A DNA stretch of 55,813 bases from a virus (Duplodnaviria; Heunggongvirae; Uroviricota; Caudoviricetes), in IMG/VR virus record IMGVR_UViG_3300042691_025398, positions 1 to 55,813 of that record; one strand, written 5' to 3'. The stretch's first letter is position 1. Each line of letters opens with the position of its first letter. Below are positions 23,277 through 24,728 of this stretch, one piece after another. Below the pieces are notes generated by a model that had not been told where the DNA came from, did no database searches, and saw only the letters and a program-made list of their open reading frames with translations. Made by a program: the position numbers and the translations under genes.

Positions 23277-23465
23277 ATGATCACCACCATGGGCAAAGAA
23301 GCTGCTGCCATCCGGCATGAAGCTTTGAAACTCAGTTGGTACATGCGGGGCGGAGTAACATACGAACAAGCACTGCAACTCAGCTATGAAGAACGCATGG
23401 CAATCAATGACATCATCAAAGACAACCTAGAAACCACTAAAAAATCTGGATTACCTTTCTTCTAA
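23277..23465 (+). CDS. gp51: Baseplate hub assembly catalyst, gp51-like; possibly translated as a -1 frameshift extension of gp26
   Basis: LSWYMRGGVTYEQALQLSYEER motif; reading frame open back to 23220 across a T_TTT_TTC site. Confidence 0.7.
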   Translation: MITTMGKEAAAIRHEALKLSWYMRGGVTYEQALQLSYEERMAINDIIKDNLETTKKSGLPFF

Positions 23466-23959
23466 TGGATTTTACGCAAGCACAAATTGATGTATTACTT
23501 TGGATTACCAGTTTTGTTGAGCAACCAAACGCGGCGCTGAACAATTGGCCTCCTTGTCCATATGCTCGCAAAGCCAGACTCAATGGTGAATTTGAAATTA
23601 GAAAAGGACAAGATCTCTGGCAAGATCTAACCACTGTAAACATGCAAGAAAAAACTGTGGTGGCTTATGTATATGATCCCAGACAAATAGACGCTGCGGA
23701 GTTCAATCACACAGTGGATCGTGCAAATCAATCTGTACTGGTAGCTCAAGATCTATTGGCACTAGCTGATCATCCAGATTCACCTGAGGAAGTTCGGGGT
23801 ATAAGATTCAATCAAGGCACATGGGCTATTGTGTTTGTGCAGCCGTTGCGCAAGTTAAATGAATTTGCCAGACTGTTAGCAGCGCAGGGTTATTATGATG
23901 ATTGGCCAGAGCACTATCTTCAAGGCTTGTTTCAACACCGGCAGGATCCTCGCACATGA
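23465..23959 (+). CDS. DUF1415-like protein
   Basis: FVEQPNAALNNWPPCPYARKA resembles the DUF1415 xCPFA motif; LALADHP and IVFVQPLRKL in the C-terminal half; TAATG coupling. Confidence 0.55.
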   Translation: MDFTQAQIDVLLWITSFVEQPNAALNNWPPCPYARKARLNGEFEIRKGQDLWQDLTTVNMQEKTVVAYVYDPRQIDAAEFNHTVDRANQSVLVAQDLLALADHPDSPEEVRGIRFNQGTWAIVFVQPLRKLNEFARLLAAQGYYDDWPEHYLQGLFQHRQDPRT

Positions 23960-24396
23960 CCTATCAGTTTGCACGTATTGATCTTGATCAAACCAATTAC
24001 CAGGAAACTGTGTATTGGGCCTATCTAGAAAAATTCAATCACAACATACAAGCCTGTATGAAAATCTATCGTGATTACTGCATTTACAAAAAATTCAACT
24101 CGGTCATGCCCATGTTTGAAAGTCGTTTTCATGATCCCATGGCAGACATCATAGGCTATTGGGATCGTGATCAAATGGTGGCCTTTAGTCTGATACGACG
24201 CTTTGACGATACCAATGCCCTGTGTGATCAGTTTGCCTGGACCTATCATGATCCAAAACTGCGCATGGGTATAGAAACACTCAAAACTGAATGTGCTGTC
24301 TACAAAAGGGCTGGATTTAGATATCTTTATCTAGAACAAGCACATTTGTACAAAAGTGAAATAGCAGGATTTGAACTACTAGGACCAATGACATAA
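23956..24396 (+). CDS. ATE1/Bpt C-terminal-like aminoacyl-tRNA:protein transferase (GNAT fold), 146 aa
   Basis: IGYWDRDQMVAFS...FAWTYHDPKLRMGIETLKTECAVYKRAGFRYLYL...YKSEIAGFE resembles ATE_C (LVAV...YDP...LG...E...A...G..YYYLGY...YK). ATG 23956 overlaps the upstream TGA. Confidence 0.65.
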   Translation: MTYQFARIDLDQTNYQETVYWAYLEKFNHNIQACMKIYRDYCIYKKFNSVMPMFESRFHDPMADIIGYWDRDQMVAFSLIRRFDDTNALCDQFAWTYHDPKLRMGIETLKTECAVYKRAGFRYLYLEQAHLYKSEIAGFELLGPMT

Positions 24397-24728
24397 TGGA
24401 CATCTATCATATTTGGGCAGACAAAGCCGGAGACATCAGTGACTCAGCCTGGGTCATGAACATGAGTAGTTTTCTTCAGCATTTGGTTGATGAAAACAAA
24501 ATGGTTTCCTATCGCATCACTAGATGCAAAATGGGATTCAGAAGCATTCAGGATCTGCCTGAATGGCACATCATGATGGAATTCAAGGACATGGCACAAA
24601 TGGATCAGGCTTTCCAGAGAGTAGCGCCTTTGGAGGGCGAGCTAGAAGTCAAGCATCGCAGCTTCAATCAATTTGTGTCTGGTAACATTCAACACGCACT
24701 GTACAGAGACTGGCCTGATCAACTATGA
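24396..24728 (+). CDS. DUF6614-like dimeric alpha/beta-barrel protein
   Basis: YHIWAD...LQHLVDE...YRITRCKMG...EWHIMMEFKDMAQMDQAF...H...ALYRDWPD pattern. Confidence 0.6.
   Translation: MDIYHIWADKAGDISDSAWVMNMSSFLQHLVDENKMVSYRITRCKMGFRSIQDLPEWHIMMEFKDMAQMDQAFQRVAPLEGELEVKHRSFNQFVSGNIQHALYRDWPDQL

Follow-up and report, generated by a model that had tools for sequence, protein, structure and literature searches.

A recurrent gene cassette of large freshwater phages predicted to couple a minimal Ate1/Bpt-like transferase with a haem-enzyme-like protein

Cells use aminoacyl-tRNA-protein transferases to write N-degrons, and the locus described here raises the question of what the catalytic core of such an enzyme might do in a phage, where it is encoded in a chain of overlapping genes. 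The locus lies in the first 55.8 kb (55,813 nucleotides, hereafter the window) of a 192-kb IMG/VR record, IMGVR_UViG_3300042691_025398, with an estimated completeness of 55%, and at its centre are three small genes on the + strand: gene A (protein P0001, 164 amino acids, window coordinates 23465..23959), whose product has a predicted compact sandwich fold like that of DUF6875 (cytochrome P422) and AglA; gene B (P0002, 146 amino acids, 23956..24396), which encodes a putative minimal Ate1/Bpt-type GNAT core without ATE_N; and gene C (P0003, 110 amino acids, 24396..24728), which encodes a DUF6614 protein. We interpret A and B, commonly together with C, as a conserved phage enzyme cassette in which B would move arginine or lysine from tRNA to an amine, A would couple an oxidation to this transfer, and the acceptor would most likely be a protein N-terminus, a reading to which we give about an even chance of being correct as a whole.

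The kinship of B with the transferases emerges from its family. An exhaustive phmmer search yielded 111 B representatives, including proteins of 225-260 amino acids to whose C-terminal half B aligns; the 225-250-residue relatives and several of the short ones match Pfam ATE_C, the homologue P0128 (43% identity to B) does so with 33.5 bits against a cut-off of 25, and the Atlas neighbours of B likewise carry ATE_C. A profile of 38 family members matches the ATE1 structures 7wfx, 8e3s, and 7tif (E 1.8e-6 to 5.7e-6), and ATE1 is the only protein in the PDB to which the family has profile matches. The AlphaFold2 model of B (predicted local distance difference test, pLDDT, 94.9) has best Swiss-Prot fold matches that are all Bpt proteins, at residues ~65-230 (template modelling score, TM, 0.72-0.79), and its fold matches in the PDB are to MprF, A-PGS/L-PGS, the tRNA-dependent peptide synthases Sbb17/Sba18, and Ate1. 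In these two-domain or tandem GNAT enzymes it is the second domain that matches B, and the start of B coincides with that of the GNAT core (FARIDL), on the strand after ATE_N; neither B nor its 225-250-residue relatives match ATE_N, and the N-terminal extension of the long relatives contains no Cys. The first-pass annotation had proposed that the middle protein resembles only the C-terminal GNAT domain of Ate1/Bpt, and the family profile match to ATE1 and the fold correspondence with Bpt both bear this out. Taking profiles and model together, we regard B as a minimal relative of the Ate1/Bpt aminoacyl-tRNA transferases that lacks the N-domain and has kept the whole GNAT core.

The residues retained by B are those expected of this relationship. 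In the family profile alignment W95, Y132, and K133 of B align with Trp260, Tyr303, and Lys304 of klAte1, which are tRNA/CCA-contact and, for the Tyr-Lys pair, active-site residues of that enzyme (PMC9351520), and the pocket C90/T108/E112/L124 corresponds to klAte1 Ser255/Ser273/Glu277/Tyr289 with the same 18/4/12 spacing; the number of family members, out of 170, that retain each residue is 162 for E112, 164 for W95, 161 for Y132, and 165 for K133. Glu277 of Ate1 binds the Arg side chain, and Bpt, which transfers Leu, has Gln at that position (PMC9351520); the Cys/Thr/Glu/Leu pocket of B resembles Ate1 in its Glu and Bpt in its Leu. Because B has kept the Ate1-type Glu and not the Bpt-type Gln, the conservation of E112 suggests a basic donor, Arg or Lys, and we infer an activity in which B transfers Arg, or perhaps Lys, from an aminoacyl-tRNA to a primary amine. 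B departs from the cellular enzymes in its length of 146 residues and in having no ATE_N, the domain that in Ate1 holds a four-Cys metal site and the Arg80/Tyr25/Tyr87 pocket for an acidic N-terminus (PMC9351520); it also differs in being phage-encoded, in being coupled to a protein with a haem-enzyme fold, and in that P0002 falls below Pfam thresholds.

Protein A appears to be a compact relative of thiolate-haem sandwich-fold enzymes, represented by DUF6875/P422 and AglA. The name cytochrome P422 has been given to DUF6875, a haem family with thiolate ligation whose members hydroxylate tryptophan, use free amino acids as substrates, and carry the haem Cys in an RxGxVCP motif (bioRxiv 10.64898/2025.12.11.692455). 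When A is compared by hhalign with four cyanobacterial DUF6875 proteins (probability 90%, E 1.7e-6, residues 2-46), C31 of A, in the sequence PPCPY, falls on the haem-ligating Cys of that motif (AVCPF/VCPY). P30-C31-P32 is invariant in the A family, which has a single invariant Cys and several invariant Arg; the Arg of RxGxVCP is not conserved. Weak matches to DUF6875 (PF21780) are found for 17 of 23 A family members, the best at E 1.1e-4. The AlphaFold2 model of A (pLDDT 96.1) matches DUF6875 and DUF1415 entries of AlphaFold DB (E 2.7e-3 to 4.6e-2 for DUF1415), and in the Atlas it matches clusters carrying DUF6875 and DUF1415 (TM 0.83) as well as ATP-grasp_4 + DUF6875 fusions. Among 48,161 solved chains AglA (9ub3_A) stands out, with Z 7.0 and a root-mean-square deviation of 3.7 over 140 of the 164 residues, the next chain reaching Z 4.1; this is a likeness at the level of fold only, and a Z of 7 is middling by the tool's own scale. 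From alignment and model together, A is predicted to bind haem through Cys31. It is shorter than the P422 proteins (164 residues versus 180-300), and the P422 substrate-binding motifs SBR1-3 are not recognisable in A by eye, in an alignment that is reliable for residues 2-46 only.

The label DUF1415-like, given to A in the first-pass annotation, survives in part: the fold-level likeness to DUF1415 groups is real, none of the 23 family members matches DUF1415 (PF07209) at E <= 1, and the label is defensible only at the superfamily level, the haem enzymes being the more informative relatives. A Foldseek search of the PDB with A gave nothing under E 0.07. Other matches were set aside as chance, namely PDB profile matches to CFA/I fimbrial subunits, which arise from a repeat-summed score, and matches of single members to CATSPERE, thymidylate synthase, and other Pfam families.

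A precedent for the pairing of two such proteins is offered by AglA, a YqcI/YcgG thiolate-haem sandwich enzyme that N-hydroxylates AMPn-Arg, which is itself made from Arg-tRNA by the GNAT AglC (PMC12866846); the argolaphos cluster likewise holds YqcI/YcgG and GNAT genes (PMC8976061). The YqcI/YcgG family (PF08892), to which DcsA and GntA also belong, has a sandwich fold built around a central four-stranded sheet, and a thiolate ligand. In both the AglA/AglC pair and the A-B pair a sandwich-fold protein of thiolate-haem type accompanies a GNAT that is tRNA-dependent or, for B, predicted to be so. The differences are considerable: A is ~80 residues shorter than the 243-residue AglA chain, with 13% identity; the substrate-gating loop residues of AglA were not identified in A, which has no PF08892 match; AglC is of the Acetyltransf_6/FemX type and not of the ATE_C type; and the AglA/AglC genes belong to a phosphonate gene cluster whereas A and B are found in phages.

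The arrangement of these genes has been maintained well beyond the genome at hand. Homologues fall into 1941 clusters for B, 1345 for C, and 464 for A, those of B being almost all 144-147 amino acids long and unnamed. The order gp26-p62-A-B-C, in which gp26 is a gp26-like baseplate hub gene (22381..23250, +; Pfam T4_baseplate, E 1.3e-11; phrog_150 baseplate hub, E 6.7e-14) and p62 encodes 62 amino acids (23277..23465, +), is found after a divergent tape-measure-like gene in 80 related IMG/VR loci, with p62 preceding A in nearly all of them. Of 76 loci, 74 retain the 4-nucleotide ATGA overlap of A and B; a junction of -1 joins p62 to A in 57 loci, and the B/C junction lies between -4 and +9 nucleotides in 71 loci, while five loci have an insert of 0.7-1.1 kb between B and C. 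Identity among relatives is 67-75% for B, 73-81% for C, and about 45-73% for A, compared with about 50% for gp26 and about 25% for the 836-amino-acid tape-measure-like gene, and the conservation of the module exceeds chance. The three genes co-occur widely in other genomes, with C the less constant member further afield: it is present in 78 of the 80 close loci and in seven of 39 distant loci chosen for B homologues of 30-54% identity. In these distant loci A adjoins B in 20, directly upstream in 17 and convergent and overlapping in three that have a long-form B. C is thus a frequent yet dispensable third member of accessory character, and A and B are the core pair, yet neither gene strictly requires the other. 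A prediction of an A + B complex scored 0.24 against a mark of 0.32, which gives no verdict and is counted neither way.

Some of the more distant arrangements are informative in their own right. The three loci of the convergent type (L088, 2512-3694; also L089 and L090) encode a 235-amino-acid long B, with a Cys-less N-terminal extension, overlapping an A-like gene beside a fatty-acid desaturase gene. A 229-amino-acid protein upstream of B in the P0171 lineage was considered as a possible A-like protein and rejected (hhalign probability 0.9%). Among prokaryote genome records, the full p62-A-B-C block is present on two contigs of Haliscomenobacter metagenome-assembled genomes (MAGs), and the A-B pair on one Bacteroidetes MAG contig. 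In Oscillatoria sp. PCC 10802 (NZ_KB235948.1; locus L122) the chromosome has an intact A homologue (47% identity, 4995-5504, +) facing what is left of a long-form B gene, its last 82 codons (5464-5709, -), in a convergent arrangement flanked by panB and a TPS-domain secretion gene; this pair looks like a decayed transfer of A-B and hints at cyanobacterial hosts for part of the family. A gene of ~350-390 amino acids is inserted between B and C in L064 (4432-5571) and also in L027, L046, L076, L094-L096, and L100. One of four insert proteins tested has a C-terminal match to the arginine deiminase/guanidino-modifying superfamily (E 0.0023, below the cut-off), which may be a third, weak pointer to arginine chemistry; the inserts of L047 and L025 (269-284 amino acids) have no family match. 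In 50,697 cultured phage records no tblastn match to B or C was found, nor any DNA match for the region, and the only relatives of A there, at 29% identity, are those of Puniceispirillum phage HMO-2011 and Roseobacter phage CRP-345, in which the neighbouring genes gave no useful family match. Literature searches found no characterised phage aminoacyl-tRNA transferase either, in agreement with the earlier statement that no characterised phage system of this kind is known.

From the homology, folds, conserved residues, synteny, and Clp gene content we infer a donor amino acid, haem binding, an order of reactions, and an acceptor as follows. B would take Arg, or perhaps Lys, from a charged tRNA and place it on a primary amine, and A, binding haem through Cys31, would oxidise either the acceptor before the transfer or the aminoacylated product after it. 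We favour a protein N-terminus as the acceptor on two grounds: the closest relatives of B are transferases that act on proteins, and these phages carry Clp genes. B could then be the writer of an N-degron pathway whose reader and protease, ClpS, a ClpA-like unfoldase, and ClpP, would come from the same phage lineage. ClpS and ClpP are present above Pfam cut-offs in four of five large trio-carrying genomes, including all three of those that are 91-100% complete (316-352 kb), and the related complete genomes have one or two ClpP genes each. The genome studied here and four relatives encode a protein of ~763 amino acids with Clp_N and AAA_2 domains, ClpA/ClpC-like, which in this genome is on the minus strand at ~164.1-166.5 kb of G000:C1, outside the window (Clp_N 44.8 bits, AAA_2 181.6 bits). 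In the phage ClpS the ND..T.M and H residues, which form the N-degron pocket of E. coli ClpS, are retained. Among cultured phages ClpS is rare, occurring in 14 of the 50,697 records, none of which has B. Among 16 trio-carrying fragments less than 50% complete (13-49%), ClpS was found in one, the fragments being too partial to inform. Also in the genome are 28 tRNA genes, which between them serve almost every amino acid, Arg, Lys, and Leu among them (cluster at G000:C1 102749-115781, outside the window), and a phage tmRNA with the tag ANAANDEVFALAA. As a separate observation, a tRNA with a CUA (amber-reading) anticodon, labelled tRNA-Pyl by ARAGORN, lies apart from the main cluster at window 12922-12997 (+).

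[quoted passage not shown] A eukaryotic branch, in which an N-terminal Cys is oxidised and then arginylated by Ate1, is the logical analogue of an oxygenase-like A coupled to an arginyl-transferase-like B. On this analogy one may picture a self-contained phage N-degron pathway of new design, in which A would oxidise the N-terminal residue of selected host or phage proteins, much as PCO/ADO oxidise Cys, B would arginylate the oxidised N-terminus with tRNA charged by phage or host, and ClpS-ClpA-ClpP would degrade the product. We consider this specific and complete version unlikely, although if true it would allow defence proteins and other targets to be destroyed under the control of oxygen, redox state, or haem.

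A number of observations weigh against the interpretation of A and B as a coupled oxidation and protein-tagging system. P0002 alone has no Pfam, PHROG, NCBIfam, or PDB sequence match, its membership resting on profiles and intermediates, and in VIA-align comparisons the acyl-CoA GNATs VipF, NMT, and MshD score level with MprF, FemX, and L-PGS (Z 13-15), ATE1 being outside the top 50 by Z; fold alone cannot tell a tRNA-dependent from an acyl-CoA GNAT, and the donor is not fixed by the model. Specificity for a protein N-terminus is not transferable to B because the acceptor pocket lies in ATE_N, which B does not have. Protein A falls below the DUF6875 gathering score (two A-like relatives reach 18.9 and 21.1 bits against a cut-off of 24.5, and P0001 itself has no match), only its first ~46 residues align with DUF6875, and none of the 23 family members matches YqcI/YcgG (PF08892) at E <= 1. 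In one lineage, of 15 loci, B stands beside a family-B DNA polymerase and both A and C are missing; conversely, Bdellovibrionia and phage HMO-2011 have A-like genes but no B. Neither ClpS nor ClpP turned up in the 55%-complete record of this genome, in relatives both lie far from the trio, and ClpS/ClpP genes are also present in cultured jumbo phages that lack B. Arg or Lys at the N-terminus does not serve bacterial ClpS as a primary degron, no Aat-like L/F-transferase was found in this genome or four relatives, and no ferredoxin (Fer2) was found in the available part of this genome.

The most serious competitor, which we judge distinctly less probable than the protein-tagging interpretation and still well worth entertaining, is that the cassette makes a small molecule: B would aminoacylate a low-molecular-weight amine, probably with Arg, and A would hydroxylate the conjugate or its precursor to give an arginine-derived metabolite of infection, with C, D (the gene that follows C), and the lineage-specific inserts acting as tailoring or carrier proteins. 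The only solved structural relative of A is AglA, whose substrate is made by a GNAT from Arg-tRNA, the argolaphos cluster combines genes of the same two types, P422 enzymes act on free amino acids, and the Atlas fusions of ATP-grasp_4 with DUF6875 pair an amide ligase with the haem fold; moreover B has no protein-acceptor domain, a B-C insert gene shows the weak arginine-deiminase match, D is sulfotransferase-like by features only, and a radical-SAM-like gene is nearby. However, B is nearest to the protein transferases Ate1/Bpt and not to the FemX/Acetyltransf_6 type of peptide natural products, the cassette has no evident transporter, precursor-synthesis, or self-resistance gene, the arginine-deiminase match is below the cut-off and confined to one of the four insert proteins tested, and the ClpS/ClpA/ClpP content of the lineage suits protein tagging better. 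The tagging idea of the first-pass annotation has thus gained support, from ClpS/ClpP in related complete genomes and the ClpA-like unfoldase in this one, in the continued presence of this competitor.

The other alternatives turn on the nature of the individual proteins. The earlier suggestion that the CPY-containing upstream protein replaces the missing N-domain would have A stand in for ATE_N, bind B, and supply the acceptor pocket, with C as an adaptor. The strict translational coupling of A and B and their adjacency across lineages are consistent with this, as are the invariant Cys and several invariant Arg of A, and the correspondence of B to the second domain of two-domain/tandem GNATs makes an acceptor-side partner plausible. 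The fold and motif of A are those of thiolate-haem enzymes, however, and not of ATE_N, a single conserved Cys contrasts with the four of the ATE_N metal site, and the long B relatives with their Cys-less N-terminal extension still have an A-like neighbour; because A and B each also occur alone, a role of A as substitute N-domain is argued against, and we regard it as improbable. We hold it similarly improbable that B works without tRNA, as an ordinary N-acyltransferase that depends on acyl-CoA and has simply diverged from the ATE_C lineage. VipF, NMT, and MshD do match the B model as well as the tRNA-dependent GNATs (Z 12.7-14.7) and some B relatives also match Acetyltransf_6, but the latter family itself includes tRNA-dependent enzymes such as AlpF (PMC8976061), the PDB profile matches are to ATE1 only, the klAte1 residues that contact the tRNA/aminoacyl group are conserved in B, and no Q/RxxGxG/A motif for binding the CoA pyrophosphate is seen by eye in B residues 100-108. 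Finally, the start of the chain at a baseplate hub gene in a structural region might imply that these are non-enzymatic proteins of the virion or of baseplate assembly, their position after gp26 reflecting a structural role, a notion that we consider very improbable given that A and B have confidently predicted enzyme folds with conserved catalytic-type residues, that the cassette genes are more conserved than the neighbouring structural genes, and that the A-B pair is found in non-structural contexts in other lineages.

The implications of the A-B pairing extend beyond this locus. The B family, with its 1941 clusters in freshwater phages, suggests that the Ate1/Bpt catalytic core can exist without an acceptor-binding domain, and B may serve as a natural system, reduced to the minimum, in which to study the division between donor and acceptor specificity. 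Its recurrent pairing with the newly recognised thiolate-haem class (P422/AglA fold), spread through a widespread group of large freshwater phages, points either to oxidise-then-tag logic or to a phage-made arginine-derived metabolite. To our knowledge, the only setting in which oxidise-then-tag logic has been described up to now is eukaryotic oxygen sensing. If the tagging reading is true, the cassette and the phage's own ClpS, ClpA, and ClpP could together represent the first case of a virus that brings its own targeted-proteolysis programme.

The three genes belong to a longer co-oriented chain headed by the gp26-like gene and containing p62, A, B, C, and D. The overlaps from p62 through D read TAATG (p62 stop/A start, 23463-23467), ATGA (A stop/B start, 23956-23959), TAATG (B stop/C start, 24394-24398), and ATGA (C to D), forming a coupled unit of at least five genes; the three small open reading frames (ORFs) and their TAATG/ATGA junctions are as first described, and the chain extends on both sides, through p62 and D. 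The program-made ORF of B opens at a TTG at 23902; the conserved start is the ATG at 23956, giving 146 amino acids as in nearly all homologues. No support emerged for the earlier placement of the module downstream of a gp26 late promoter: a search of the region preceding gp26 yielded neither a late promoter of T4 type nor one for sigma-70, the sole TATAAATA of the window is at 18088, and a sigma-70 scan was at chance level. The divergent 836-amino-acid tape-measure-like gene (-) and gp26 (+) are separated by ~20 nucleotides (window 22360-22410), a gap without TATAAATA, and an in-frame second ATG at 22408 may be the true gp26 start. No Pfam or PHROG family match was found for p62.

C is a bona fide member of DUF6614 (PF20319), as the first-pass annotation had supposed, with residues 1-109 aligned to profile positions 1-107 of 116 (E 2.2e-23, 82.9 bits against a cut-off of 25). 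Its feature neighbours in the Atlas are DUF6974 and DUF4286, which are leads only, and the sole mention of DUF6614 found in the literature, a predicted label on the anti-Druantia gene of another phage, is a weak lead. D (P0004, 340 amino acids, 24725..25747, +) has no Pfam, PHROG, or NCBIfam match and is present in a minority of related loci (25-69% identity); its look-alikes by Atlas features are sulfotransferase clusters (0.93-0.94, with few shared features), again a lead only.

The surrounding part of the window is T4-like and structural, with major head protein, portal, baseplate hub/lysozyme, and SbcCD-like genes. The stretch occurs in DNA sequencing runs whose labels are lake water, freshwater, and 'fungus metagenome', and no RNA run is among those listed. 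Beyond D are a 335-amino-acid ORF (26130-27137, -) without a family match, in which a GCSITAG stretch recalls by eye the SGNH/GDSL hydrolases, and a gene for a 340-amino-acid protein (27659-28681, -) that matches radical-SAM PHROGs (E 2.4e-20). Together with A-D these two genes make up an enzyme-rich island between the baseplate and SbcCD-like genes.

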